Shown here: one piece after another, positions 8,693 through 61,307 of the stretch
Layout: each line of letters starts with the position of its first letter
Numbering within the stretch: the stretch's first letter is position 1
From: Candidatus Abyssobacteria bacterium SURF_17
GTDB taxonomy: Bacteria; Abyssobacteria; SURF-5
NCBI GenBank assembly: GCA_003598055.1
Contig: QZKI01000022.1
Coordinates: forward strand, 15,566 to 79,565
Reading direction: 5' to 3'
DNA: 64,000 nucleotides
The notes under the pieces: model-generated
The model's input: the letters and a program-made list of their open reading frames with translations, nothing else
Database searches by the model: none
What the model was told of the DNA's origin: nothing
Program-made: the position numbers and the translations under genes

Positions 8693-8754
8693 CGCGTAAT
8701 TCCGGAAATTCGCGGCATAGGTAAAATAGCCCTGAGGATGGTTGTTGTAGGGCC

Positions 8755-8812
8755 GAATTCATTCGGCTGGAGACCTGGAAGGCCTCATGCGAATAAATTC
8801 GCACCTACAGAC
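8755..8812. repeat. bipartite palindromic repeat element (GGGCCGAATTCATTCGGCTGGA ... ATGCGAATAAATTCGCACCTACAGAC)
   Basis: Two short palindromes (GCCGAAT/ATTCGGC and TGCGAAT/ATTCGCA) plus a CCTACAGAC tail. The same two modules recur at 44515-44586 and the second module twice at 51116-51187. Confidence 0.5.
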
Positions 8813-9827: not shown

Positions 9828-10014
9828 TACAGTCAAGGGTGCGTCACGACTCGGCGGGGTGTCGCCTGAACGCTCTCATCTGACAATGAACCTTAAAGGG
9901 CCTATTGCCGAAATAGTGTTCCTTCCGACAATTCCATAAGAACTGTCATTCTGACCATTTTCACCCCGCTGTTGGCGAAGGAGACTTGACCAAGAAGCAT
10001 TCCTTGCTCTCACT

Positions 10015-10173
10015 GTCATTGCGAGTCATGCCACGCCTGAGGCGGGGCATGACGAAGCAATCTCTGAGTGTGTATCCTCAACGTTGCCTATGAGATTGCT
10101 TCGGTCGCGTCGCTCCCTCGCAATGACGGCGCGGATGTTTCTTCCACGCATAACCCCGCCACAGGCGGGGTCG
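10015..10173. repeat. modular nested-inverted-repeat element, copy A (GTCATTGCGAG-hairpin-GAAGCAATCTC ... GAGATTGCTTCG-...-CTCGCAATGAC-tail)
   Basis: GTCATTGCGAG / CTCGCAATGAC and GAAGCAATCTC / GAGATTGCTTC are reverse-complement pairs. The inner hairpin TCATGCCACGCCTGAGGCGGGGCATGAC and the ~45-nt tail GGCGCGGATGTTTCTTCCACGCATAACCCCGCCACAGGCGGGGTCG are shared with other copies (20901-21047, 37730-37854 and others). Confidence 0.6.
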
Positions 10174-10283
10174 AAGGCTCAGAATGACATAAGTGGTTGC
10201 TCCTTTTTGGGCGACGTGCCGAAAAGAGCTGACCCCATTTGAGAAGTTGCCACCTTTTGCCCGGAGAGTTTCGCGGGAAGCGG

Positions 10284-12671
10284 TCACGGAGAGCGAAGGA
10301 ACGGGTTTCGACGAAAAGCGATGTAGGAGAGGGCGTACAGCAGGGCTGAAAGCACGAGAAGGCTCCGGAGTCCATAAACGAGCGATGCGTATTCGAGCAG
10401 TCCGCCGATGACAGCTCCGAGAAGATTGGAGCCGAACGCAATTTCGATTCGAGGGAACCGCTTGAGCAGCGTTGCAAATATGATTCCCGCAAAAAAGATT
10501 GGCAGGGACAGGAAGACGCCGCCAAGCGCGCCGCGAACCAGAATCGAGTATTTCAAGAAACTGCTTACGGGAATCAGGAAATTGAGCAGCAGAGATGCCC
10601 CCAGCAGGGCGTAAATGGGTGTCAGACTCTTGAACTCGAACCGGCTGCAGACATAGTTTGCGGCCAATATCATCAGGAGAATGCAGGAAATCACGAATGA
10701 GTTGACCAGCCAGGTGGAACCGAACATGAGCGCCATGTCGGTAATGCTCTTGAATTCAATCAGCAAGAACGCGCTTCCGAGGAGAAAGAACGGGGGGCTG
10801 ACTTTCTTGGATTCAGGGAATATCCACAAGATGAGGAGTAGAGACAACGCCAACGTGACAGCGAGCACCTTCCAGTAAGGAGCGGGTATTTTCTTTTCTT
10901 TGAGATACAAATATGGCCAATTATCCGTGGTCACGGACGGGGGGTTGACGGGCGCTGGAAGCACATTGGCCAAAATACGGTCTCTCACCGCTCGTGTCTT
11001 GGCTTCGGGAGCGGGATTTTCCAGCAATCGTTCGAGTCCCGGCCCGGCAATATACATGATTCCATTATCGTAGCCGGTTGCGAAGCTGAGCGGCTCGTGT
11101 TGAAAGACTTCCTCCAACATGTGGAACAGGCGATCAGCTATCCACTCGGTGTGCACTCCGAACGTCAATGCGATTATGCCGTTTTCTTTGAGGTGATTCC
11201 TGGCCTCGCGGAAGCTCTCGATGGTATACACATAATTGTCCAGCCTTAGGTTTGACATGCTCGAGAAGAGCGTGTGAGAGTCGAGCAATCCGTATATGAT
11301 GACATCGTACTTCTTATCCGCCTTTCGGAAGTAGGAGCGGGCGTCATCATTGATGAGGCGCACCCGGTCCGAACTATACGGGTCCTCGGGGTGAAGCTCG
11401 CGACCAAGGTCCAGAATGACGGGGTCTATCTCGACGGCATCCACCTCTTGTGCGCCGTATCGCAGGGCGGCCGCCACGTCGTTGCCGGTTCCGGCGCCGA
11501 CAACGAGGACATCATCCGCCGGGAACAACTCATACACAATGTTGTAGGCAAGGGCGCCCGACTTCAGTATCGGGAACTGTTGGCCATGCTCTTCCACGAA
11601 AGCTGAAGAAAGATTGATAATGTTCTGATGATAATCCTTGTTGACATCCAGTCGGTAACCAAGGAGAACTTCGCTGCCACTGGCTTCGACCGTAACGGGG
11701 AAAACATTGATGCGATAGTAGGGTGACCAATACCCCGGTTGTTGGAAGCAGGTCAGAAAGAGGATGAATCCGCCACACAACAGAGCAGTTGCTCCGAGAA
11801 TCACTTTCTCGCCGCGAACCATCCAGAGGAAAAGAACGAATCCAAAGGCAAACCAGACAACCGGGGGGAATTGAAAGAAAGAGATCGCCGAAAAAGCCCA
11901 GACCCCCAGAAAGCTGCCGGCGATATTTATCGAGTAGGCCGTCAAGGGAGAGAAGAACTTCATCATATGTCCTGTCAAGTGTCCGAGCGGAATGAAGCAG
12001 AACACGTTCATGAAGAAAAAGAACAGAACGACTCCGTAGAAAAGCGCCGTTTGCAGCCCGGGCACTTTGGAGAGTCCCCATATATACTCCTGTGAGGCTC
12101 CGGGATATGAAAGGAACGGAGTCAATAGTGTGACCACTATCACTAACGCCGAGAAGACACAGAAGAGCGGCGCAAAGACAACATGGAGGTGGCGGCGGCG
12201 GCTGGCAAGTGAAAAGCCTACACCCAGCCCCAGGAAACAGGAGATGAGCGGGAAGTTGGTGAAGTAGGCAAAAATGCGGAGTTCCGTCGAAAGCCATCGT
12301 ATAACAAGTATCTCGAAGTAAAGTCCCAAGAAGCTGATGAGAAAAAGAGTAAGCGCTTTTTGAGCATTCCCTTGGTTTGCCAGGAATTCGGTCTGCAGCT
12401 CCGCCCGCCTCCGCAGGAACTCCAGGAATCGCTCTCGATATATGAACGAAAGCGTCGACCACACAATGAAGCCTCCGCCCACTATCAGGAGAAACACCTG
12501 AAGGGCGCGAGCTTTCCGCTCTATGTCCGCAAGCTGCCCGCCGGCGGAGAGGTGCGATGCGACCCAGTCCGGTCTGATGATGAAGCCGAATGCGATTGCC
12601 GCGATTCCGCATCCCAGCAACAGCCACCTGAGCCACGGTCGTCGTCGTTGGGCGTTTGGGTAATTTTCCAT
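10284..12671 (-). CDS. spermidine synthase-like (class I SAM-MTase fold) domain flanked on both sides by polytopic membrane domains
   Basis: 795 aa. Central VLVVGAGTGNDVAAALRYGAQEVDAVEIDPVILDLGRE...LINDDARSYF is a SpeE/aminopropyltransferase-type Rossmann. About 8 predicted TM helices lie N-terminal and about 6 C-terminal. Confidence 0.6.
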   Translation of the reverse strand: MENYPNAQRRRPWLRWLLLGCGIAAIAFGFIIRPDWVASHLSAGGQLADIERKARALQVFLLIVGGGFIVWSTLSFIYRERFLEFLRRRAELQTEFLANQGNAQKALTLFLISFLGLYFEILVIRWLSTELRIFAYFTNFPLISCFLGLGVGFSLASRRRHLHVVFAPLFCVFSALVIVVTLLTPFLSYPGASQEYIWGLSKVPGLQTALFYGVVLFFFFMNVFCFIPLGHLTGHMMKFFSPLTAYSINIAGSFLGVWAFSAISFFQFPPVVWFAFGFVLFLWMVRGEKVILGATALLCGGFILFLTCFQQPGYWSPYYRINVFPVTVEASGSEVLLGYRLDVNKDYHQNIINLSSAFVEEHGQQFPILKSGALAYNIVYELFPADDVLVVGAGTGNDVAAALRYGAQEVDAVEIDPVILDLGRELHPEDPYSSDRVRLINDDARSYFRKADKKYDVIIYGLLDSHTLFSSMSNLRLDNYVYTIESFREARNHLKENGIIALTFGVHTEWIADRLFHMLEEVFQHEPLSFATGYDNGIMYIAGPGLERLLENPAPEAKTRAVRDRILANVLPAPVNPPSVTTDNWPYLYLKEKKIPAPYWKVLAVTLALSLLLILWIFPESKKVSPPFFLLGSAFLLIEFKSITDMALMFGSTWLVNSFVISCILLMILAANYVCSRFEFKSLTPIYALLGASLLLNFLIPVSSFLKYSILVRGALGGVFLSLPIFFAGIIFATLLKRFPRIEIAFGSNLLGAVIGGLLEYASLVYGLRSLLVLSALLYALSYIAFRRNPFLRSP

Positions 12672-20767: not shown

Positions 20768-20900
20768 ACTTCAAAATCCCTCATGAATTTGCGAAGAAAC
20801 TACAGGAAGTCTAACAAAGATTGCCTTGCGCGTCAATGAGCAGCAGGGCTTCGACAAAGGGAGGAGACCCGGGTGGCACTCAAAGAATTCCTGAGGTTGT

Positions 20901-21047
20901 TTTTGCGAGAAGCGTAGCGATGAAGCAAACTCCATTTCTTCGGAGATTGCTTCGCTCGGGCCTACGGCCCTTCGCTCGCAATGACGGCTCGGATGTTCCT
21001 TTCACACATAACCCCGCCGCAGATGGGGTCGGATGCTCGCAATGACG
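20901..21047. repeat. modular nested-inverted-repeat element, copy B
   Basis: Contains GAGATTGCTTCG...TTCGCTCGCAATGAC and the tail GGCTCGGATGTTCCTTTCACACATAACCCCGCCGCAGATGGGGTCG, nearly identical to copy A. Lies in the putA-upstream intergenic region. Confidence 0.55.
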
Positions 21048-21083: not shown

Positions 21084-22181
21084 TCAGTATGCGCCGTATT
21101 CCAGGGCGCAGCGGAACATCATGCGGATGTTATCGGGATTGGCGTTCGGAGGCGCTTCGCATCCGGAACTCAGGATGAAGCCGCCGCCGTCGGCGCAGGT
21201 GTCGATGAGGCTCTTGCATGCCTTCTCGACTTCCGCCGGCGAGCCGAATGCGAGCAGTGTGGGGTCTACATTGCCTTTGATGCAGAGTTTTCCGCCGAGA
21301 ATTCGCTTCGCATGAGCCATATCGGAAATATCCAGCTCGACAACGGCAGAACCGACGGGAAGCTCGGTGAAGTATTCCATCAACGGGTCCCAATTGCCGT
21401 CAAGATGCAGGATGACGAGGTAACCGGCCTTGGAATATGCCATGACCTGCTCTTTCAACCACGGCCACGCGAACTTCTCAAACATCCGTGGCGACACCAT
21501 CGAGCTTGAGAACTTCAGACTGGGCATACAGATGTTCTTCGCCCGCAGGAGACGGGCAATACGGAGCGTATTCTGTATTATCGTGCGGTTGTGTCTTTCA
21601 TTAATAGCGGTCATCTTCTCGGGAGTGTCAAGCAAATCGGTGAACCCATCGCTCCCTCGATAAAAGAGCATCAGCTCGGCAGGCAGGTAGGAGATTGCTT
21701 CCTGCCAGGGGACCGTGTCACAGTGTTTCCTCCAGTATGCCATCCAGCGGAGATGCTTGAACAGATGCCAGCTCATGGTCTTGATGACCTCGCGGCGGCC
21801 TATGCGGGCATGCGAGCGCATTCTCGAAAAGCCTCTTTCCAGGACCGAATCGTATATCTCAGGCCCGGCCTGCACGCGCTCCATCATCTGAGGCATCTCG
21901 GTATCGAAGAAGCGCCAGTCGTAATAGAGCGCGCTGTAGAGAATGGGAACCGTCGCGGTGAATGCGAAGCGCATCGGGGTGAGGTTCATGGTGTCCGGGA
22001 GGCCGTCGTAGTATTCGAATGCCTTGAGCGAAGCCCGGTGGCAGGCATCGACATCCCAGATGAAATCATGCATGCGCGTGCCCGTCACGCTGGCGAAATG
22101 ATAAATCATGAACGGAGAGACGGGAACATAGTCAGGCTTTTTGAGGGCAATGGCGGCGGCCACGCGTTCGGCGGATGTCAT
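21084..22181 (-). CDS. uroporphyrinogen decarboxylase (URO-D) family protein, MtaA/CmuA-like methyltransferase fold
   Basis: 365 aa. The C-terminal half (VILHLDGNWDPLMEYFTELPVGSAVVELD...KLCIKGNVDP...GGGFILSSGCE) matches the URO-D TIM-barrel family. Confidence 0.55.
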   Translation of the reverse strand: MTSAERVAAAIALKKPDYVPVSPFMIYHFASVTGTRMHDFIWDVDACHRASLKAFEYYDGLPDTMNLTPMRFAFTATVPILYSALYYDWRFFDTEMPQMMERVQAGPEIYDSVLERGFSRMRSHARIGRREVIKTMSWHLFKHLRWMAYWRKHCDTVPWQEAISYLPAELMLFYRGSDGFTDLLDTPEKMTAINERHNRTIIQNTLRIARLLRAKNICMPSLKFSSSMVSPRMFEKFAWPWLKEQVMAYSKAGYLVILHLDGNWDPLMEYFTELPVGSAVVELDISDMAHAKRILGGKLCIKGNVDPTLLAFGSPAEVEKACKSLIDTCADGGGFILSSGCEAPPNANPDNIRMMFRCALEYGAY

Positions 22182-27960: not shown

Positions 27961-28023
27961 GTTATTGCGAGGGGGTCGAAAGCAATCTCTTTATCATAGG
28001 GGGATTGCTTTGCTGGCAACGAC
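27961..28023. repeat. modular nested-inverted-repeat element, short copy F
   Basis: GTTATTGCGAGGGGGTCGAAAGCAATCTC ... GGATTGCTTTG-CTGGCAACGAC is a degenerate version of the GTCATTGCGAG/GAAGCAATCTC module. Confidence 0.4.
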
Positions 28024-29716: not shown

Positions 29717-29750
29717 AGTTTGTCCCGCGCTCGTGAGGATGGATATGTGC

Positions 29751-29859
29751 GGGGGCGCAGGGCTGTGCGCCCCTACAACAAGAATTGCGGCTGCTTCGCA
29801 AAGAGTTGACCGCATCTCGTGTGGAGGGGCGACCCGACGTCGGGTCGCCCCTACAATTG
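29751..29859. repeat. two REP-like GC hairpins with CCCCTACAA tail (GGGGCGCAGGGCTGTGCGCCCCTACAACA; GGGGCGACCCGACGTCGGGTCGCCCCTACAATTG)
   Basis: Members of the GTAG-headed hairpin family repeated through the window. They sit in the kinase-PilZ spacer. Confidence 0.5.
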
Positions 29860-32102: not shown

Positions 32103-33233
32103 TCAGATTTTTTCCAGAGGCCGCTTCTGGCCGGCCATTTCGTTCTCCGATGCTACCTTCAATCGTAATTCCCTCGGGGATGCAAAAATCGGTTCGCGCT
32201 CGAGCCGTTCGAGCCTGAGGGCCTCGGTCGGGCACGTGACCGTGCACGCTCCACAGCCCATGCAGCGGGTTTCATCAATTTGGGCTTTGTCGGCGCCGTC
32301 GGGCAGGGAGATTGCCTTGAAGAAACAGCGGTCAACGCATGTGGCGCACGCGGCGCAATCGTCGCTCACCCGCGCGACGAAGTTGGAGCGAGCAAATGCC
32401 CTTGGATTGTCCCATCTCGTCAGGCCGCGCGTGATGGAGCAGCAGCAGCCGCAGCAGAAGCAGATGACGCCATCTTTCATCTCGACGGCGTTATCGGTCA
32501 TGACGACGAGCCCGAGGTCTCGCATTTCTTCGGCAAATTTTTTTGCTTCTTCCCGCGTCACCTGTTTGCCATCGCCGCGGCCGACCATGAGCATTGCAGG
32601 CATGCCCACGAACAGGCACGATCCCACGGGATACTTATCCTTGCACTCGCGGATTCCGAGCTTGTCGGTCCGGTTGCGGCACGGGCACGGTGCCAGCGCG
32701 AGCGCTCCCAAGTTGGCCTGGTCCAAGAACACATCGAGTTCCTCATGAGAAAGCACCTGCTGGCCCCCTGAAATTGACTGGTCCACGGGCACGGCCCGGC
32801 GCTGTGGAGTACCTTTCGCCGACGATTCATAATAGCGGTAGAAGCCGTCCTTAATGTAGTACTGCTGGTACAAACGGCCAGCTTTCATGGCATCTTCGTC
32901 ATCGGCATTTCGAAATGGGTGATAATTGACCAGAAGCGGGATTACCGGAAGCATGTATTGTCCGCCGAATCCGATAATTACGCCTCTTTCCGTCAGTCGC
33001 CCGAGAACTTCTTCGACTTCACTGACAGGTTTCCCGGCCCTCTCAGCGACCTCTTCCGCCGTCAAACGGTTCGGGTCGACCGAAAGGAACGAAGCCACCT
33101 CTGCTTCTTCGGGTTTCAAAAGAATCTGAAGATACTCGAGAAAAGCCGGAGAGAAATCTCCGTCTACCTTCGGCACGCCCGTGATGTTCATGTCAAGCTT
33201 TTCGGCGAGCGTTTTGTATGGAGACGTCGTCAT
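32103..33233 (-). CDS. Fe-S protein: N-terminal winged-helix-like domain + Cys-cluster (CPC..C..CFCCGCCC) + two CxxCxxCxxxCP ferredoxin motifs (paralog 1, divergent)
   Basis: 376 aa. Ferredoxin motifs CAACATCVDRC and CMGCGACTVTCP. Shares domain order and about one third identity with the next two genes. Confidence 0.6.
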   Translation of the reverse strand: MTTSPYKTLAEKLDMNITGVPKVDGDFSPAFLEYLQILLKPEEAEVASFLSVDPNRLTAEEVAERAGKPVSEVEEVLGRLTERGVIIGFGGQYMLPVIPLLVNYHPFRNADDEDAMKAGRLYQQYYIKDGFYRYYESSAKGTPQRRAVPVDQSISGGQQVLSHEELDVFLDQANLGALALAPCPCRNRTDKLGIRECKDKYPVGSCLFVGMPAMLMVGRGDGKQVTREEAKKFAEEMRDLGLVVMTDNAVEMKDGVICFCCGCCCSITRGLTRWDNPRAFARSNFVARVSDDCAACATCVDRCFFKAISLPDGADKAQIDETRCMGCGACTVTCPTEALRLERLEREPIFASPRELRLKVASENEMAGQKRPLEKI

Positions 33234-33309
33234 TACCTTCTCCTCCTGATACCATCAGTTTGCTTTGCGAGTTAGCCCATAGCCGTTTCGAGGGGCAACG
33301 CAATGGAGC

Positions 33310-34413
33310 CTAAATCAGCCCTTCGAGAGTGCGGCCCGTCTTCTGTGCCTTTTCCATTGTCCAGGTGATCATGTTTTCCGGCGGGACGTCGATGTGCTCT
33401 TCATCCTTGCGTACAAGTGAGAGCGCTCCGCTGGGACACGTGACCACGCACACGCCGCACCCGATGCAGCGGTCTTGGTTTACTTCATAGTATTCGCTCC
33501 GCGATTCGATGGCCCCAACAGGGCATCGCTCATCGGCGCAGACGCCGCATGCGACGCATGTTTCCGGGTCGATGTTTGCCAGGTAATTGGATTTCGCAAG
33601 CATATGAGGCGATTTCGCCATCTTCACGCCGCGCAGGATCGCGCAGCAGCACGTGCAACAGTTGCAGATGAACACGTGGTCGTCCTGCACATTCCACGAA
33701 TTGTGCACGAGGCCTTCTTCCTCCGCCTTCTTGAGCAGTTCGAGCACTTCTTGCTTCGTTGCTTTTCGCGCGCCGCGGTACTCGATGTCGAACCCGTGCG
33801 GGTCGGGCGAGAAGGCGATGCAGTTGTTCATCGTCCTGTTGCAGCCTTTGCCGATGATCTTCATTTCCTTGCGGCAGATGCAGTCGGAAACAGCCCATGA
33901 TTGGGCTTTCTCGACCATGTTTGAGACTTTCTCGAACGGGAGCACGGTGAGCTCGTTCGGAATCGCCTGCTCTACGGGATACACCCGTATTTGTGCCGGC
34001 GCTTCCTTTCCCACGTGCTCGATGAACGCCTCTTCAAGGTATTGCTCGAACAGCTCGACGTATTCCTTGTCGAGCCGCGCGAGCTGAAACTCGTGAATCC
34101 CGAGAATGAACGGGAACGCGCTGTACATGCGGCTTTCCGCCGGCCCCATTCCCATGAGCTGGCCCTTTGAGGTCATCCTTTCGAGGATTTCGGCCATTTT
34201 CTTCGGGTCGCGGCCCAACCGCTCGGTTACCTGCTCGGCTGTCTCCGGCACCAATTTCATTTGTGATGCGACTTCGGCCTCCTCCTCCGTGAAAATCTTC
34301 TTGAGGATTCTTATCTCGACACCGCTCTCGGTCTTCGGATACCCGTGCGGCATCGCTTCGAGATGTTCGGCTAATTTCTGATAACTCCCTTTGCTCATGA
34401 ATCGTCCCTCCAA
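33310..34413 (-). CDS. Fe-S protein, winged-helix + Cys-cluster (CNCCTCCC) + 2x[4Fe-4S] ferredoxin motifs (paralog 2)
   Basis: 367 aa. Motifs CVACGVCADERCP and CIGCGVCVVTCP. Very high identity to paralog 3, roughly 80% or more by eye. Confidence 0.6.
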   Translation of the reverse strand: MEGRFMSKGSYQKLAEHLEAMPHGYPKTESGVEIRILKKIFTEEEAEVASQMKLVPETAEQVTERLGRDPKKMAEILERMTSKGQLMGMGPAESRMYSAFPFILGIHEFQLARLDKEYVELFEQYLEEAFIEHVGKEAPAQIRVYPVEQAIPNELTVLPFEKVSNMVEKAQSWAVSDCICRKEMKIIGKGCNRTMNNCIAFSPDPHGFDIEYRGARKATKQEVLELLKKAEEEGLVHNSWNVQDDHVFICNCCTCCCAILRGVKMAKSPHMLAKSNYLANIDPETCVACGVCADERCPVGAIESRSEYYEVNQDRCIGCGVCVVTCPSGALSLVRKDEEHIDVPPENMITWTMEKAQKTGRTLEGLI

Positions 34414-34455
34414 GCAACAAAACTCTCGTTCCGTTACAATAAGAATTTTCGGTCG

Positions 34456-35571
34456 TTATATCAGGCCTTCCATGGTGCGGCCGGTTTTCTGCGCTTTTTC
34501 CATTGTCCAGGCGACAATGTTATCGGGCGGAATGTCGATTTCGGCCTCGTCTTTCCTGACGAGCGAGAGCGCGCCGCTCGGGCACGTGACCACGCACACG
34601 CCGCAGCCGATGCAGCGCTCGCGATTTACTTCATAATGCTCGTTGCGCGCGTCGATTGCCTGCATCGGACATCTCTCGTCGGCGCACACGCCGCAGGCAG
34701 CACAGGTGTCCGCATCAATCTGTGCGTAGTAATTCGACCTAGCCGCGAAATTAGGCGCCTTCTTTATTCCGCGAAGCACGAGGCAGCAGCATGTGCAGCA
34801 GTTGCAGACAAACACATGGCTGTCCTGCACGTTCCACGAAGTGTGCACGAGACCTTCCTCCTCCGCCTTCTTGAGCAGTTCGAGCACTTCTTCCTTCGAG
34901 GCCTTCCGCGCGCCGCGATAATCGATGTCGAACCCATGCGGGTCCGCTGAAAATGCGATGCAGTTATTCATCGTAGCGCCGCATCCCTCGCCCAATATCT
35001 GCTTCTCCTTGCGACAAATGCAATCAGCTACGGCCCAGGCCTGAGCCTTCTCGACCATGCTTGAAACTTTTTCGAAGGGGAGCACGGTGAGTTCGGCTGT
35101 TATTGCCTGCTCCACGGGATAAATACGGACCTGGGACGGCGCTTCCTTCCCCACTGCGTCGGCATAAGCCTCCTCGAAATACTGCTCGAACAACTCTGCA
35201 TATTCCCTGTCAACTCGCGGCAATTGAAACTCGTGGACGCCGGCAATAAAGGGGAATGCACTGTACATGCGACCATCCTTAGGGCCCATCCCCATAAGCT
35301 GCCCTTTGGACGTCATCCTTTCCAGTAACTCGGCCATCTCCTTCGGCTCACGGCCGAGACGCTCGGCCACCTGGTCTGCATTCTCCGGCATCAGCTTCAT
35401 CTGCGACGCGACTTCGGCTTCCTCTTTCGTGAAAATCTTCTTCAAGATTCTTATCTCAATCCCGCTCTTGGTCTTCGGAAACCCCTGCGGCATCGCGTTG
35501 AGATGTTCGGCTAGGTTCCTGTACGTGTCTTTACTCATAGCTGTCTCCCTCCAAAGGACACCAATGGCCAC
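34456..35571 (-). CDS. Fe-S protein, winged-helix + Cys-cluster + 2x[4Fe-4S] ferredoxin motifs (paralog 3)
   Basis: 371 aa. Near-identical architecture and sequence to paralog 2, suggesting a recent tandem duplication. Confidence 0.6.
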   Translation of the reverse strand: MAIGVLWRETAMSKDTYRNLAEHLNAMPQGFPKTKSGIEIRILKKIFTKEEAEVASQMKLMPENADQVAERLGREPKEMAELLERMTSKGQLMGMGPKDGRMYSAFPFIAGVHEFQLPRVDREYAELFEQYFEEAYADAVGKEAPSQVRIYPVEQAITAELTVLPFEKVSSMVEKAQAWAVADCICRKEKQILGEGCGATMNNCIAFSADPHGFDIDYRGARKASKEEVLELLKKAEEEGLVHTSWNVQDSHVFVCNCCTCCCLVLRGIKKAPNFAARSNYYAQIDADTCAACGVCADERCPMQAIDARNEHYEVNRERCIGCGVCVVTCPSGALSLVRKDEAEIDIPPDNIVAWTMEKAQKTGRTMEGLI

Positions 35572-36481: not shown

Positions 36482-36526
36482 GGGCGAACCTTGTGTTCGC
36501 CCATGGGCGCAATGAATTACGCCCCC
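36482..36526. repeat. pair of REP-like hairpins (GGGCGAACCTTGTGTTCGCCC; GGGCGCAATGAATTACGCCCC)
   Basis: GC stems with an AATGAATT loop, related to the TGCGAATAAATTCGCA and GGGCGCA...TGCGCCCC families. Confidence 0.4.
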
Positions 36527-36773
36527 CTGAGTCTGTCCCACAATTGCGCTTCATCCCCTTTCTCGCCTGACATTCTTTGCGCCCTTTGCGTCTTTGCGGT
36601 TAGAAAACTCCTTGGGCAAGAGCAGGTTCGCCCCCGCAACTGACCTCCTCATAATGTTTGATGCATTTTCCAGTCTCATCTATGAGCAATTTCGACGACT
36701 TAACATTGCATTCCGAAAAGGTTGCTGACAAACTTAGAGAAATTACATTCAGTCACGAATACTGTTCGGCGCT

Positions 36774-37583: not shown

Positions 37584-37729
37584 GAGACCGGCGAGCTTCT
37601 TGGCCGATGAAGTGAGTGAGGCCAACACCCATTATGTCAGCCTGAGCGAAGCGAAAGATCTCTTCTCCGCAACGAGGGTCCGCCCAATCAAGATTCTTTG
37701 CTCCACTTCAAAGAAACCGCGCCACCTTG

Positions 37730-37854
37730 GTCATTGCGAGGGAGCAGAGGGGCGCAGACCCGAGCGACCGAAGCAATCTCCTTGGCACATACAGGCTGGT
37801 GCAGAGATTGCTTCGTCATGCCCCGCCTCAGGCGTGGCACGACTCGCAATGACG
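37730..37854. repeat. modular nested-inverted-repeat element, copy C
   Basis: GTCATTGCGAG...GAAGCAATCTC ... GAGATTGCTTCG-TCATGCCCCGCCTCAGGCGTGGCACGAC-TCGCAATGACG. The inner hairpin is the reverse complement of the one in copy A. Lies in a convergent intergenic region. Confidence 0.6.
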
Positions 37855-37888
37855 ATTAGAACCTGCCGATTTCTAGGCAAAAGGCGCC

Positions 37889-39235
37889 TCACGCCGAGAA
37901 ATATCGTTCCTGTGATTCTTCGAGCGTTTCGCGCAGCACGCGCATGGCTTCGTCTATCTGCTTCTCGGTTATGATGAAGGGCGGCGCCATCATGATGTGG
38001 TCGCCGCGCCCTTGCTCGTCTTCGTAGTAACCCGGGTAGAAGAACACTCCTTTCATCATGCACTGCATGATGATGTCCATCTTCACCTTCTTCTCCTTCG
38101 GGAACGGCTCTTTCGTTTTCTTGTCTTTCACGAACTCGATGGCCCACAGCAATCCTTTGCCGCGCACATCGCCGACCATGGGCAGCGACATGAGCTGGAG
38201 CAGGCTTTCGTGGAGATAGTTGCCCATTTGCTCGGCGCGCGCGATGAGCTTCTCCTTCTCGATGATTTTCTGAACTTCATTGCCGACCGCGCAGGAGAGC
38301 GGATGCGCCGAGAATGTGTATAAATGCTGGAACTCGACCTCGTTGTTCTCGAACAACTCGACGAGCTCGCTGTGAACCGCCATGCCGGCGAGCGGCGCGT
38401 ATGCGCTGCCCACGCCCTTCGCAAACGTGGCGATGTCGGGCACGACGCCGAAATGGTCCATCCCCATGTTCCTGCCGGTGCGGCCGAAGCCGGTCACGAC
38501 CTCATCCGCAATGAAGACGACGTTGTGCTTGGTGCACGTCTCGCGGATTATGGGATAGTATTCGGGCGGCGGCACCGTTCCACCCGACGCCGAGGCAACA
38601 ATCGGCTCCGCAATGAATGCGGCGACCGTGTCCGGTCCCTCGGCGAGGATTTTCTTCTCTAGAGCGAGCGCGCAGTCGATGTCACAGTTCGGATATTCTT
38701 TGTCGAAGGGACAGCGGTAGCAGTAGCATGCTTCGATTTTCGGGTTGTTCCACAGCATCGGCGTAAAATCCCGCATGCGCGGCTTCACATCGCCGACGGA
38801 GAGCGTGGCAAATGTCATTCCGTGATAGCTCAGTTTTCGCGAAACGACCTTGTATTTCGACGTCCTCCCTGCGACGACGTGATACTGGCGCGAAAACTTG
38901 ATGGCCGCCTCGTTGGCCTCGGAGCCGCCCGAACAGAAGTAGATGCGGTTGAGATCCTTCGGCATGAGTTTCTTGATTCGCTTTACGAGTTCGATTCTCG
39001 CTTCCGACGCGAACACGGGCAGGATATATGAGACTTCCTCGAGCTGCTTCTGTGCGGCCTTCGCAACTTCCTTGCGACCGTGGCCGATGTTGACGGCCAT
39101 TGGTCCGCCGGAAAAATCAAGCAGCTTTCGCCCGTAGTTATCGTGCAGGTACACGCCTTCGGCCTTCGTGATGAGGATTGGCGGCACATGCGGGTGCTTG
39201 ATGAACATATTGTCTACAATGTCCTGCATCTCCAT
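37889..39235 (-). CDS. class III (PLP fold type I) aminotransferase
   Basis: 448 aa. The GGPMAVNIGHG, Lys-bearing FIADEVVTGFGRTG and TFAKG region are typical of omega-aminotransferases. Confidence 0.85.
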   Translation of the reverse strand: MEMQDIVDNMFIKHPHVPPILITKAEGVYLHDNYGRKLLDFSGGPMAVNIGHGRKEVAKAAQKQLEEVSYILPVFASEARIELVKRIKKLMPKDLNRIYFCSGGSEANEAAIKFSRQYHVVAGRTSKYKVVSRKLSYHGMTFATLSVGDVKPRMRDFTPMLWNNPKIEACYCYRCPFDKEYPNCDIDCALALEKKILAEGPDTVAAFIAEPIVASASGGTVPPPEYYPIIRETCTKHNVVFIADEVVTGFGRTGRNMGMDHFGVVPDIATFAKGVGSAYAPLAGMAVHSELVELFENNEVEFQHLYTFSAHPLSCAVGNEVQKIIEKEKLIARAEQMGNYLHESLLQLMSLPMVGDVRGKGLLWAIEFVKDKKTKEPFPKEKKVKMDIIMQCMMKGVFFYPGYYEDEQGRGDHIMMAPPFIITEKQIDEAMRVLRETLEESQERYFSA

Positions 39236-39944: not shown

Positions 39945-39975
39945 CAGGGCGCAGCATGTTGCGCCCCTACAACCT
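39945..39975. repeat. REP-like hairpin GGGCGCAGCATGTTGCGCCCCTACAACC
   Basis: Same family as 29751-29859, 51015-51040 and 61037-61067. Confidence 0.5.
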
Positions 39976-43449: not shown

Positions 43450-43547
43450 TTTAAACCAACACGGTGTGTTTTACAAGCCTGACTGACGCGCGGCGGGAAA
43501 AGAGGGAGGTATGGGATAGCCATGGCTCGCTTTGCTTGAGATTGCTT

Positions 43548-43576
43548 CGGTCACCGCGCTTCCCTCGCACCGACGA
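43548..43576. repeat. degenerate fragment of the GAGATTGCTTCG...CTCGCAATGAC module (copy D)
   Basis: GAGATTGCTTCGGTCACCGCGCTTCCCTCGCACCGACG. Confidence 0.35.
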
Positions 43577-44402: not shown

Positions 44403-44514
44403 GAGTAGCATATGTTGGCACCCCCATCGTTCGAACAAAAAATGTTTCTTTGAAACCGTGCCTGTGCACTTGCGCAAGTTAGGGACAGAGAATCAGTATC
44501 GTGGTCCTGTAGGG

Positions 44515-44586
44515 TCGAATTCATTCGACTGGATATGAGCGCAAAGTTGCTGAAAACATTATGCGAATAAATTCGCACCTACGAGA
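44515..44586. repeat. bipartite palindromic repeat element (GGGTCGAATTCATTCGACTGGA ... ATGCGAATAAATTCGCACCTACGAGAC)
   Basis: Second full copy of the 8755-8812 element; both modules are present. Confidence 0.5.
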
Positions 44587-49870: not shown

Positions 49871-51040
<1,170 letters not shown>

Positions 51041-51115
51041 TTCTTGGCCTACCTCTCGGCCCGCGTCTTTCGTCTTTCCCAATTCCCCTTCAGCGATTGT
51101 TTCCTGCTTGTGTAG

Positions 51116-51187
51116 GTGCGAATTTATTCGCATGCGGATGACGAAAACAAGCCGGAAAAACCATGCGAATGAATTCGCACCTACAGA
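51116..51187. repeat. inverted pair of the TGCGAAT-AA-ATTCGCA / CCTAC element (BIME-like)
   Basis: GTAGGTGCGAATTTATTCGCAT at 51116-51137 is the reverse complement of the ATGCGAATGAATTCGCACCTACAGAC unit at 51161-51186. Confidence 0.5.
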
Positions 51188-52278: not shown

Positions 52279-52383
52279 CGGATGGTTCACCGGTCTGTAC
52301 TACTATCGTTCAATTTCATGATCTTCGTCGCGATTTTCCGGCGACATGCTGTATAGTAACCATGCAAACGAACTTGCACATGC

Positions 52384-52431
52384 AAGGGCGCAATAAATTA
52401 CGCCCCTCTGCGCCTGCCGTAGGGGCGCGAT
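52384..52431. repeat. REP-like GC hairpins with AATAAATT loop (GGGCGCAATAAATTACGCCCC ... GTAGGGGCGCGATTCATCGCGCCC)
   Basis: Links the GC-stem and AT-loop families: GTAG head, GGGCGC stems, AATAAATT loop. Confidence 0.4.
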
Positions 52432-53019
52432 TCATCGCGCCCGATCTGTTTGGTTGCGGCCGTGCCGCTCTATGCGAGCTTGAGACGAACCGGGCGAGTG
52501 GAATCGCTCCTTCTCGCTGTAAATGCAGCCGCAGTATTTCTGCCGGTACAGCCCCATTTCGCGCGACAGTTGGCGGGTCTGCGGCCAACCCGGCCGAAAA
52601 TCCTCGTAATAGAATTCGATTCCGTACTGCAATCCGGCGCTCTGGCCGACTTCGCGAATGAGGTCGTGCTTCTGATACGGGCTTACAAGGAGGGATGTGC
52701 TGAATGCATCGAACCCCTGGGCCGACGCTTCGCGAGCCGCTCGTGACAAGCGCAGGTGGTAGCATGCTACGCAGCGATTGCTTTCACGGTATGCGACAAG
52801 TCTGAAATACTCCTCCACATCGTACTCATTGCAAATCGTTGCCGGTATGGCCTCGATTTCGAGCAATTTCCTCGCCGAATCCAGCCGGAGGTTATGCTCG
52901 GCCAGCGGATGGATGTTGGGATTATAAAAGAATCCGTGCACATTGTGGCCTCGTTCCCGCAAAGTCTTCACGGGATAGGTGGCGCACGGTCCGCAGCAGA
53001 TGTGGAGAAGAAGCTTCAT
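52432..53019 (-). CDS. queH: epoxyqueuosine reductase QueH (DUF208)
   Basis: N-terminal MKLLLHICCGPCATYP (CCGPC signature of DUF208/QueH). 195 aa. Adjacent to queA and tgt. Confidence 0.8.
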   Translation of the reverse strand: MKLLLHICCGPCATYPVKTLRERGHNVHGFFYNPNIHPLAEHNLRLDSARKLLEIEAIPATICNEYDVEEYFRLVAYRESNRCVACYHLRLSRAAREASAQGFDAFSTSLLVSPYQKHDLIREVGQSAGLQYGIEFYYEDFRPGWPQTRQLSREMGLYRQKYCGCIYSEKERFHSPGSSQARIERHGRNQTDRAR

Positions 53020-59388: not shown

Positions 59389-61005
59389 TCACGTTTCGTT
59401 TTTCATCCCCGGCTTCCTTTTCGGTTTTTCGCGCGCGACATCGCGGGCGGCTTTGTCCTCGCGCAGTCTCACGAAGACTGGCTGTCTCATGACCGCATCT
59501 TCTGTCCAGCCGGGAAAAGAGACTTCGCAGACCAGTTTCGGCTTCAGCCAGGTGACCGCGGCATTGGTTTCCGGTTCCACTCCAAAGGGGCACTTTTTTC
59601 GGATTAGCGGGTCCATTTTTTCGCGGATTGCCTTCAGGTCTTTCGCAGAGAATCCGCTCCCGCAATGACCGATGGAAATCAGATCGTTCCCGTCGTACAC
59701 GCCTAAGACGAGGGCGCCGAAATGTCTTCTTCTCCCCCTTGGTTCCGTGAATCCTGCGATGACGGCCTCCTGCGTGAGATGCGTCTTGACTTTCAGCCAC
59801 TGCCGGCTTCTTTTGCCCATCCGGTACGTGCTTTGAGAATGCTTGGCGATAATTCCTTCGAGACCCTTTTCTCTGGCGGCATGGAAAAACGAAACGCCTT
59901 CTTCCCATACGTGGTCGCTGAATCTGATGTTCGAGCCCGCCGGGAGGATTTTCTTCAGGAGTTCTTTTCTCCTGAGCAAGGGCAGGTTTGTGAGGTCATG
60001 TCCCCGGAAGTACAGCAGGTCAAAGACATAATAGAGCAAATGACCGCTTCCGGATTTTTGGTGATGCCTCAACATCTGGAAATTGGGGCGTCCCTGGTCG
60101 TCTACGACAACGATTTCGCCGTCCAGGACGGCCTCGAATCCGAATTCGCGAAGCGAGTCTGCGATAGGAGCGAATCTTTTGTTGAAAGAAATCTGGTTTC
60201 GGGAATAGAGCGAGACGTTTCCGTTGCGGATATCGGCAATGGTGCGGTATCCGTCCCATTTCACCTCAAAAATCCAATCGGGATGGTCAAACGGTTTCTT
60301 GATGAGCGTCGCGAGCATCGGCTTTATGGCCGACGGCACTTTCTTAACGGGCGCATCCCTCAGGTCTTCGCTTTCCATTGCTTCGCGAAGACGAATCCGG
60401 CTTACTCTCTTTTGTTCTGAGGATTTCGTCGGTTTTGCTTCGGAGATATCCTCCAGAGTCTTGTGCGACACTATGGAACGGTTCTTCTTGAGGATTTCAT
60501 CTTTCGTCGCATATTGGTCTTTTTTCTTCAAAAGCAGCCACGACTTCCCGTCCTTCCCCGTTTTCACTAGTGCAAATTCACCACGAAGCTTTTCGCCCGC
60601 GACAACGAACTTCACATTTCCTTTTCTCAATCCGTCGAGAAGAAGTTTCTCACTTTCTTTTCTGTCTTTGGCGGAAGGATGTTGATAAAAGCCCCTGTCC
60701 CAGATGATAACGCTTCCTGCGCCGTAATTGCCCTCCGGGATGACTCCCTCGAAGTCCTTGTAATCAAACGGATGGTCTTCTACCATAACGGCGAGTCTTT
60801 TCACGGAAGGATTCAGCGAGGGCCCTTTGGGGACAGCCCAGCTCTTCAGCACGCCCTCGAGCTCGAGTCTGAGGTCATAATGAAGGGCACGTGCCGCGTG
60901 CTTTTGAACAACGAAAATGAGATGGTCCGCCTTGCGACCACGAGCCGGCTTCGGTTCGGGCGTCTTCTCAAATTTCCGTTTGGATTTGTATTCTTTCAGT
61001 GCCAT
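59389..61005 (-). CDS. ligD: ATP-dependent DNA ligase LigD, phosphoesterase (PE) + ligase domains
   Basis: N-terminal PE domain HYDLRLE...SWAVPKGPS. Ligase motif I EVKWDGYR (KxDG) with downstream nucleotidyltransferase/OB motifs. Start placed at MALKEYKSKRKF (61005), downstream of the REP hairpin. Confidence 0.85.
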   Translation of the reverse strand: MALKEYKSKRKFEKTPEPKPARGRKADHLIFVVQKHAARALHYDLRLELEGVLKSWAVPKGPSLNPSVKRLAVMVEDHPFDYKDFEGVIPEGNYGAGSVIIWDRGFYQHPSAKDRKESEKLLLDGLRKGNVKFVVAGEKLRGEFALVKTGKDGKSWLLLKKKDQYATKDEILKKNRSIVSHKTLEDISEAKPTKSSEQKRVSRIRLREAMESEDLRDAPVKKVPSAIKPMLATLIKKPFDHPDWIFEVKWDGYRTIADIRNGNVSLYSRNQISFNKRFAPIADSLREFGFEAVLDGEIVVVDDQGRPNFQMLRHHQKSGSGHLLYYVFDLLYFRGHDLTNLPLLRRKELLKKILPAGSNIRFSDHVWEEGVSFFHAAREKGLEGIIAKHSQSTYRMGKRSRQWLKVKTHLTQEAVIAGFTEPRGRRRHFGALVLGVYDGNDLISIGHCGSGFSAKDLKAIREKMDPLIRKKCPFGVEPETNAAVTWLKPKLVCEVSFPGWTEDAVMRQPVFVRLREDKAARDVAREKPKRKPGMKNET

Positions 61006-61036
61006 GTGTGCGAATGATTCCCAAACATCGGCGTTG

Positions 61037-61067
61037 TTTGTAGGGGCGCACGGCCGTGCGCCCCTGC
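61037..61067. repeat. REP-like hairpin in inverted orientation TTGTAGGGGCGCACGGCCGTGCGCCCCTGCC
   Basis: GTAG head plus GGGCGCA/TGCGCCC stem. Confidence 0.45.
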
Positions 61068-61109
61068 CACGCGACAGATTCATAATCCGAAATAATTCAA
61101 CCAAAGACC

Positions 61110-61214
61110 GTCATTGCGAGCGAAGGGCCGCTTGCCCGAGCGAAGCAATCTCTGCACGCATTCTCAACTGCCTCCAACGAGATTGCTTCGGTCGCTTTGC
61201 TCCCTCGCAATGAC
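61110..61214. repeat. modular nested-inverted-repeat element, copy E
   Basis: GTCATTGCGAG-CGAAGGGCCGCTTGCCCGAGCG-GAAGCAATCTC ... GAGATTGCTTCGGTCGCTTTGCTCCCTCGCAATGAC. Confidence 0.6.
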
Positions 61215-61307
61215 TGCACCGGAGGAACGTCACTAGTACAGTCCTCTTTGCCCGGAGACGGGGATAGAGCCCTACCATGGCTCTGTCCCCATCTGTTCAA
61301 TTCCATG

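Follow-up and report, generated by a model that had tools for sequence, protein, structure and literature searches.

In Neisseria meningitidis, the GIY-YIG protein SsnA (94 aa; Y6, Y17 and E64) binds the oriented, dRS3-containing NTS repeat as single-stranded DNA (ssDNA) only, and not as RNA or double-stranded DNA, and makes its cut a few bases upstream of the repeat (Chenal et al., Nat Commun 2025, PMC11893778). The GTC that precedes the NTS palindrome matters for cutting and the C that follows it for binding, and transformation by NTS-bearing DNA is lowered by SsnA (PMC11893778). Across phyla, Ssn homologues are flanked by Ssn-related motifs (SRMs), on at least one side in 71% and on both sides in 42%, and Chenal et al. 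likened this repeat-gene-repeat arrangement to an insertion sequence (PMC11893778). The NTS itself, CGTCATTCCCGCGMAVGCGGGAATCYRG, is the type example of an SRM (PMC11893778). A second described group is the CGTC-tagged REP superfamily (Di Nocera, De Gregorio and Rocco, BMC Genomics 2013, PMC3733652), to which Neisseria dRS3 and the Rickettsia elements RPE-4 and RPE-6 belong. Its members have a C/TGTC tag, a stem whose first two positions are A-T, a 3-nt tail and paired units (PMC3733652).

Here we analysed a window of 64,000 nucleotides (64 kb) from Candidatus Abyssobacteria bacterium SURF_17, in which housekeeping genes flank the copies of a hairpin repeat. The window holds 10 hairpin modules at six intergenic sites (copies A to F), well above chance: GTCATTGCGAG has 12 matches at ≤1 mismatch where 1.7 are expected, a count reached by 0/100 shuffles, and GAAGCAATCTC has 11 matches versus 2.1 expected, with no shuffle as high. 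These counts, together with strong folds, bear out the initial annotation, which had described a dispersed repeat in at least six copies rather than random similarity. The modules follow the formula (T/C)GTC-ATTGC-GAG-(variable inner segment)-CGAA-GCAAT-CTC. Most are arranged as inverted pairs with their heads (GTC) outward and a 20-30 nt spacer; in copies A, D and F the tails of the inverted pair face a spacer of 23-27 nt. Folded as ssDNA, the whole elements form branched hairpins with z-scores from -4.9 to -7.4. We consider it highly probable that these elements are Ssn-related hairpin repeats, and specifically gene-less copies, mostly inverted pairs, of a minimal ssn cassette. Their parts are as follows.

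10015-10064, plus strand: copy A left module, GTCATTGCGAG with a 28-nt inner hairpin (TCATGCCACGCC-TGA-GGCGGGGCATGA) and CGAAGCAATCTC
10065-10091, no strand: copy A spacer between the tails, at the position of the ssn gene in gene-bearing cassettes elsewhere
10092-10127, minus strand: copy A right module, reverse complement of GTCATTGCGAG-GGAGCGACGCGAC-CGAAGCAATCTC
10128-10188, minus strand: copy A tail, a lineage-specific 50-nt segment with a CCCCGCC/GGCGGGG hairpin, pairing with 9944-9972
10178-10188, minus strand: degenerate extra head closing the copy A tail, CTCAGAATGAC
20899-20932, plus strand: copy B left module, degenerate, GTTTTTGCGAG..GAAGCAAACTC
20943-20985, minus strand: copy B right module, with inner CGAAGGGCCGTAGGCCCGAGC on the reverse strand
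20986-21046, minus strand: copy B tail and a second intact head (CTCGCAATGAC at 21036-21046), a "head stutter"
27961-28023, no strand: copy C, a short decayed dimer, GTTATTGCGAG..AAAGCAATCTC / GGGATTGCTTT..CTGGCAACGAC
37730-37780, plus strand: copy D left module, inner GGAGC..GCGAC with a nested GGG.CGCAG.CCC hairpin
37804-37853, minus strand: copy D right module, with the inner hairpin of copy A left (93% over 59 nt)
43538-43574, minus strand: copy E, a solitary module in the coaX/lptC spacer, degenerate head CTCGCACCGAC
61110-61152, plus strand: copy F left module, inner CGAAGGGCCGCTTGCCCGAGC
61179-61214, minus strand: copy F right module, in the 302-nt primpol-ligD intergenic region

By itself, the left module of copy A folds at -17.8 kcal/mol (z -5.6), and copy C, whose two modules (27961-27989 and 28001-28023) are both degenerate, folds weakly (z -3.3). 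The window pairs are heterodimers drawn from three inner types, and therefore the interchangeable inner hairpins of the initial annotation were correctly seen, apart from small errors of label and coordinate. Type 1, a 27-nt GC hairpin, is found in A-left and D-right; type 2, GGAGCnAnGCGAC, in A-right, F-right, B-left and E, with D-left nesting a further hairpin inside it; and type 3, CGAAGGGCCG..GCCCGAGC, in F-left and B-right. The hairpin TCATGCCACGCC..GGCGGGGCATGA, previously assigned to copies A and C, belongs to the copies at 10015 and 37730, the second of which is the fourth listed and not the third. Copy E does contain a module, although its limits had been given as 43548-43576. The tail that copies A and B had been said to share is genuine (84% identity over 75 nt), and this tail and the window's inner hairpins were absent from all other fetched loci, making them specific to the window. 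The lone GAGATTGCTTC at 21691, within the URO-D ORF, probably matches by chance. A literature search with the raw repeat sequence matched only primers.

The genes adjoining the copies are panE-like, putA, URO-D-like, class II RNR, HAD and acetoacetate decarboxylase genes, aminotransferases, coaX, lptC and the Ku-Ku-primpol-ligD operon, an NHEJ operon within which copy F sits. Copies A and D occupy convergent spacers and copies B, E and F tandem ones, as had been described; of the divergent placement also claimed, only a possible case was found (copy C). The elements do generate spurious ORFs, and examples of spurious or over-extended frames that cross them are 10088-10525(-), 37600-37974(+), 37731-38147(-) and the ligD ORF 59389-61104, whose TTG start makes it 33 codons too long, the true ATG being at 61005. 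Module density is high, with 10 in the 64-kb window versus about 4 in 409 kb of related DNA that was not selected by pattern. No ssn gene was found by tblastn within the 64-kb window, and relatives showed no conserved synteny for the aminotransferase near copy D. Elsewhere in the window, 32103-35571 holds a tandem run of three paralogues (~370 aa), all with 4Fe-4S dicluster domains at the C-terminus and with 74-80% DNA identity over 300-nt stretches.

The module can be written as the pattern YGTCATTGCGAG-N(4-60)-CGAAGCAATCTC, and its anatomy was derived from 308 unique copies. Across these copies GTC was preceded by T in 68% and by C in 23%, G was scarce in the ten bases upstream of the module, the last inner base was C in 96%, and nothing was conserved beyond the CTC tail. 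Modules end in CTC or CCC and fold as hairpins 28-70 nt long, in keeping with the imperfect palindrome of 20-50 nt expected of an SRM. The inner segment, 4-60 nt in length, occurred as more than 200 different sequences. Inner segments were assessed by stem and pair counting, the energy z-score being uninformative for very short hairpins, and perfect stems of ≥5 bp were present in 20% of them versus 3% of shuffles, with 54 different stem sequences. Covariation of the nested stems, which the initial annotation had proposed to check, was observed in the apical helix: in two length-matched alignments 0/500 shuffles reached the observed score, slid controls collapsed, and four of the five or six apical pairs changed on both sides. 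Many of the non-standard cells in the apical helix are tandem G.A/A.G, and the apical loops are mostly GNA triloops with a C-G closing pair. Such C-G-closed triloops are noted for their stability in DNA mini-hairpins, for example d(GCGAAGC). Unlike the apical helix, the basal stem is conserved in sequence; its variants mostly reflect one-sided decay, and a few sub-families are fully compensated, such as ACTGC/GCAGT, ACCGC/GCGGT and ATTCT/AGAAT.

In a scan of species-representative genomes, the exact 22 conserved bases were present in at least 119 contigs from many bacterial phyla. The matches came from Chloroflexota, Patescibacteria, Planctomycetota, Omnitrophota, Atribacterota, Bacteroidota, Nitrospirota and Elusimicrobiota, as well as several proteobacterial classes, a Sporomusa isolate and others. 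A scan of IMG/VR placed them in at least 120 viral contigs, many of them from related tailed phages that carry genes for the portal, head decoration and the tail. About half of all modules are single; the pairs had their tails facing in 103 cases, were in tandem in 45 and had their heads facing in 27, and in Chloroflexus modules form arrays that repeat every ~50 nt. Of the bacterial modules, 59% fell within the ~14% of DNA that a crude gene caller assigned as non-coding. Modules that seemed to lie inside a 700-aa phage ORF were traced to read-through of the portal/MuF linker (L137, L183 and L230). In these viral contigs the linkers of the portal-MuF ORF contain in-frame modules that yield peptides like SLRGAE..EAIS..PRNDM, and these recall the in-frame Rickettsia palindromic elements.

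To survey the neighbours of the modules, ORFs from 239 loci were clustered all against all and the 150 nearest neighbour proteins were compared with Pfam. Two small GIY-YIG proteins were among these 150. Phage structural genes and generic ABC ATPases (including UvrA) also emerged from the clustering, a false lead that did not represent specific neighbours. Using tblastn, we identified three GIY-YIG genes, each touching modules. In a Planctomycetota locus (L018) the order is module, 8 nt, gene, 33 nt, inverted module; an Omnitrophota locus (L046) has the same type of layout with the ATTCT module variant; and in L083 modules stand at either end of the gene. A weak GIY-YIG match in the relative L241 was a UPF0213-like gene adjoining a tRNA, without flanking modules. 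Of the genomic contexts selected by the protein, 9/9 had modules ~100 nt or less from the gene at each end, in addition to the three loci selected by the repeat. These nine contexts were GatB/IF-2B, a type II secretion pseudopilin operon, HepT/MNT, Cas_APE2256, Cas4 (Roseiflexus-like), N6-methylase/ResIII, uvrB/uvrA, one viral contig and a Planktothrix plasmid, where the cassette lies between MmeI and DISARM drmA. Three of the nine share a layout of GTCATTGCGAG-hairpin-CGAAGCAATCTC, 11-20 nt, ATG...95 codons...T-GA-GATTGCTTCG..CTCGCAATGAC, in which the first bases of the right module are the stop codon of the gene. The complete cassette (hairpin, 95-aa ssn gene, hairpin) is ~370-400 bp long.

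The GIY-YIG protein family comprises at least 7,994 matches and 4,564 clusters at 50% identity (E ≤1e-10). NCBIfam contained no model specific to the module-flanked nuclease, and in the PDB only a distant UPF0213 relative was found (1zg2, E 3e-5). Many database homologues (P0241-P0301 and others) carry false N-terminal extensions of 40-75 aa that are translated modules (SLRG..EAIS, VIAR.., LAMT). Of the viral contigs with modules, at least 120 in all, only one was found with a nearby ssn gene. Ssn cassettes or module clusters often lie beside defence or toxin-antitoxin genes (L355, L358, L356, L348, L344 and L040), namely MmeI with DISARM drmA, N6-methylase/ResIII, Cas4, Cas_APE2256 and HepT/MNT. 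Module neighbours also gave HEPN and nucleotidyltransferase (NTP_transf_2) matches, one pair probably being in L040. The proximity to defence genes could reflect a defence role or just common insertion hot spots.

The module-flanked nuclease matches Pfam GIY-YIG, and one representative (P0175) has 43.8% identity (E 3e-19) to its single N. gonorrhoeae match, a 94-aa ORF with Y6, Y17 and E64 and an NTS beginning two bases past the stop codon. Judged by its sequence, this gonococcal ORF matches the published SsnA in size, in Y6/Y17/E64 and in the adjoining NTS. The comparison was possible because PLSDB files a gonococcal chromosome as a plasmid: NZ_CP119140.1 (L354) is a 2.17-Mb Neisseria gonorrhoeae replicon. 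The module-flanked protein and SsnA share the same spacing of the three residues that were mutated in the published study (PMC11893778). By the Pfam GIY-YIG match and the 44% identity, putative genes of the Ssn (cd10448) type are flanked by modules in other genomes. Since the module-flanked protein is homologous to SsnA, which cuts beside a hairpin repeat, the elements very probably belong to the Ssn-related motifs, and because the same two modules bracket the ssn gene elsewhere, the window elements would thus be the gene-less form of the cassette.

The architecture of the modules agrees with that of SRMs in several respects. Both are oriented hairpin repeats with an unpaired (C/T)GTC head upstream, a stem beginning ATT and a C directly after the palindrome, which in the modules reads (T/C)GTC-ATTGC...GCAAT-C(T/C)C. 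Both occur in many intergenic copies, often as inverted pairs, and bracket a gene for a single-domain GIY-YIG protein of ~95 aa (repeat-gene-repeat); the protein encoded between modules is 44% identical to gonococcal SsnA with equal Y..Y..E spacing. Unlike SRMs, however, modules of the window type conserve no more than 5 bp of stem (ATTGC/GCAAT); above it come a purine internal loop, GA/GAA, which is likewise conserved, and an apical hairpin free in sequence and length (4-60 nt). Their tail is CTC where SRMs have CYRG. Their distribution differs too, being centred on Chloroflexota, Planctomycetota, Omnitrophota, Patescibacteria, other non-proteobacterial lineages and the contigs of tailed phages. 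The published SRM pattern, HGTCWYN(0-2)YYVSBRHN(0-5)WNVSBRGN(0-2)RNCYNB (PMC11893778), matched 0/376 modules and nothing in the window, whereas it recovered 7 NTS in a gonococcal control locus. Membership therefore rests on the architecture and the associated protein, and not on the published motif.

The modules likewise resemble the CGTC-tagged REPs, here compared through the text descriptions of those families. They share the unpaired CGTC/TGTC tag, the A-T first stem positions and the 3-nt unpaired tail, as well as paired units, often heterodimers, with 20-100 bp spacers. Further common traits are placement mostly in tandem or convergent spacers, occasional in-frame intragenic copies and the lack of a nearby transposase. 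The difference lies in stem and loop: CGTC REPs have an uninterrupted 8-9 bp stem, a 4-5 nt loop and a CCA tail, whereas in the modules the stem is interrupted, the apical part is variable and the tail is CTC/CCC. The initial annotation had allowed that the modules might be parts of a known element, and this is so in part, with the modules falling within the Ssn-related motifs (2025) and the CGTC-tagged REPs (2013). The Ssn/SRM kind of system is already described, and the modules are a distinct sequence class of it that the published search missed.

We propose the following mechanism. The parent unit, as it appears elsewhere, consists of a module, ~13 nt, a 95-aa GIY-YIG gene of the Ssn family and an inverted module overlapping the stop codon. 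When DNA becomes single-stranded, during replication or transformation or in phage and conjugative intermediates, the purine-rich module strand would fold into the 5-bp ATTGC/GCAAT basal stem, the GA/GAA internal loop and an arbitrary apical hairpin, as predicted by the folding and covariation computed here. The basal stem and the unpaired bases on either side of it (5' GTC and 3' C) may then be read by a cognate Ssn, which would nick the ssDNA a few bases upstream; this is known for Neisseria SsnA on the NTS, and homology and the conserved flanking bases suggest the same for the modules. Cutting would restrict or trim motif-bearing ssDNA, and break repair or copy-paste would probably spread the cassette and its gene-less derivatives through intergenic DNA, sometimes into hairpin loops. 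The window copies would be passive substrates or relics, any ssn gene lying elsewhere in the genome. We infer that a cognate Ssn acts on the SURF_17 copies and that the cassette, with its gene-less derivatives, owes its spread to Ssn activity.

A bolder version, which we regard as possible though on balance doubtful, is that the hairpin/ssn/hairpin unit is itself a self-mobile element in which a GIY-YIG ssDNA nickase replaces the transposase, the gene-less pairs are its miniature derivatives, and the TTGCGAG class forms a pan-bacterial lineage. This class is conserved to the base across many phyla and is present in tailed phages. If the version were true, recognition by Ssn would be confined to the 5-bp stem, the GA loop and the flanks, and any apical hairpin would be tolerated. 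Three loci (L344, L348 and L349) encode an identical Ssn protein with identical modules and have differing flanks: in L348 the downstream divergence starts right after ..CTCGCAATGAC, and in L349 the upstream divergence begins ~30 nt before the head. Mobility of the element or recombination at it would produce such flanks, and so would chimeric metagenome assembly at repeats.

We also considered whether the modules are host-selected RNA or DNA signals, such as terminators, mRNA stabilisers, sRNAs or riboswitches, with no link to a nuclease. Strong hairpins with a covarying inner helix would suit such a role, as would their position mostly downstream of genes or inside operons; 76 bacterial modules were in tandem, 30 in convergent and 11 in divergent spacers, the last being under-represented. 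However, no Rfam family matched at gathering score anywhere in the window, with only chance-level matches to copy A at E ≤10. Lone bacterial modules had no orientation bias (17 sense vs 14 antisense), and dimers show both strands equally. The identity of 22 bases across many phyla and phages is unlike a host regulatory signal, and the loops are mostly the C-G-closed GNA triloops that are stable in DNA. A host signal is thus an unlikely explanation, and the structured-RNA family suggested by the initial annotation found no backing in Rfam or in module orientation, although the modules may have secondary effects on transcripts.

Evidence of insertion came from the primpol-ligD junction. Among loci L244-L323, six metagenomic orthologues have a stop-N-ATG junction there, versus 302 nt (61006-61307) in the window, and the whole intergenic region, which contains copy F, a GTAG-type repeat and another hairpin, is missing from the six orthologous loci. 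Other lineages carry unrelated hairpin repeats of 120-510 nt at this junction, among them a canonical CGTC REP pair (L309) and a GTCATTGCCAG..GCAATCTC variant (L316), and hairpin repeats seem to have a hot spot of insertion here. Target-site duplications, for which the initial annotation had proposed a check, were not detected: direct repeats of 2-8 nt did not exceed the permutation expectation in any of the isolated dimers (0/48). The flanks of 6/48 dimers formed inverted repeats of ≥8 nt, versus ~2% expected, which suggests that dimers are sometimes inserted into existing hairpins. The window elements are inserted, yet they are without classical-transposon character.

Some modules are accompanied by a "head stutter", consisting of tandem partial 5' heads with the upstream pyrimidine-rich flank and without the 3' half of the module, which recurs in unrelated lineages. 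It may have been left by cuts made upstream of the head and then repaired. The sites are listed below.

L004, 1280-1380: head stutter
L355, 925-990: head stutter
L018, 5022-5050: head stutter
Window, 10128-10188 and 20986-21046: head stutters in the tails of copies A and B

REP/REPIN-type elements, which in Pseudomonas and E. coli are moved in trans by a RAYT (Y1 HUH) enzyme, offer another comparison. REPIN/BIME-RAYT and IS200/IS605 systems likewise involve DNA hairpins in single-stranded form, inverted doublets, no target-site duplication and a small enzyme gene flanked by repeats, and a REPIN would account for intergenic, heterodimeric hairpin pairs of ~100 nt. The window also contains genuine GTAG-headed REP-like families. 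However, the module head is (T/C)GTC and not GTAG, and the enzyme is a GIY-YIG nuclease, the recurring gene near modules, and not a Y1 HUH protein. No recurrent transposase was found among the 150 nearest neighbours or the ORFs of the 239 loci, and no RAYT lay near modules in those loci. Di Nocera et al. likewise saw no tyrosine transposase adjoining CGTC repeats (PMC3733652). Mobilisation by a RAYT is accordingly very improbable for the modules.

The other repeats of the window are distinct families. One, of the classical REP-like, RAYT-associated kind, has a GTAG head and the form TGTAGGGGCGCA-N5/6-TGCGCCCCTACAA. Another, also GTAG-headed, reads TGTAGG(G/T)NCGAAT(T/A)NATTCGNC and occurs as inverted pairs ~27-30 nt apart.

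29749-29778: second family (GTAG)
39946-39972: second family (GTAG)
51012-51040: second family (GTAG)
61038-61067: second family (GTAG), in the same intergenic region as copy F
8746-8809: third family (GTAG-headed)
44507-44582: third family (GTAG-headed)
51111-51186: third family (GTAG-headed)
36502-36555 and 52383-52436: a 54-nt repeat pair, 74% identical, with a GGGCGCAAT.AATTACGCCCC hairpin

Least credible is a classical MITE, a deletion derivative of a DDE-transposase IS that moves by cut-and-paste through terminal inverted repeats: the 11-nt perfect terminal inverted repeats, the 100-125 nt size, the many copies and the presence and absence at one orthologous site all recall one, and the initial annotation was right to the extent that inverted modules bracket a small protein gene elsewhere that is missing in the window copies, but the 48 isolated dimers lack target-site duplications, inverted pairs account for about half of the modules, the others being single or in tandem arrays, and no DDE transposase recurs among the 150 neighbours or in the 239 loci.

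The reading of the window elements as gene-less derivatives of an ssn cassette would explain a repeat that litters intergenic DNA and causes spurious ORFs and wrong start codons in many uncultured lineages. It would extend the Ssn/SRM system to a class that the published pattern does not detect, in phyla and phages not previously described for it. The modules and their nuclease form a candidate nuclease-motif pair of new specificity, and the apparent tolerance of any apical hairpin may be relevant to the ssDNA tools proposed for Ssn. With compact repeat-gene-repeat units and clean empty sites available, the spread of the repeat becomes directly testable.
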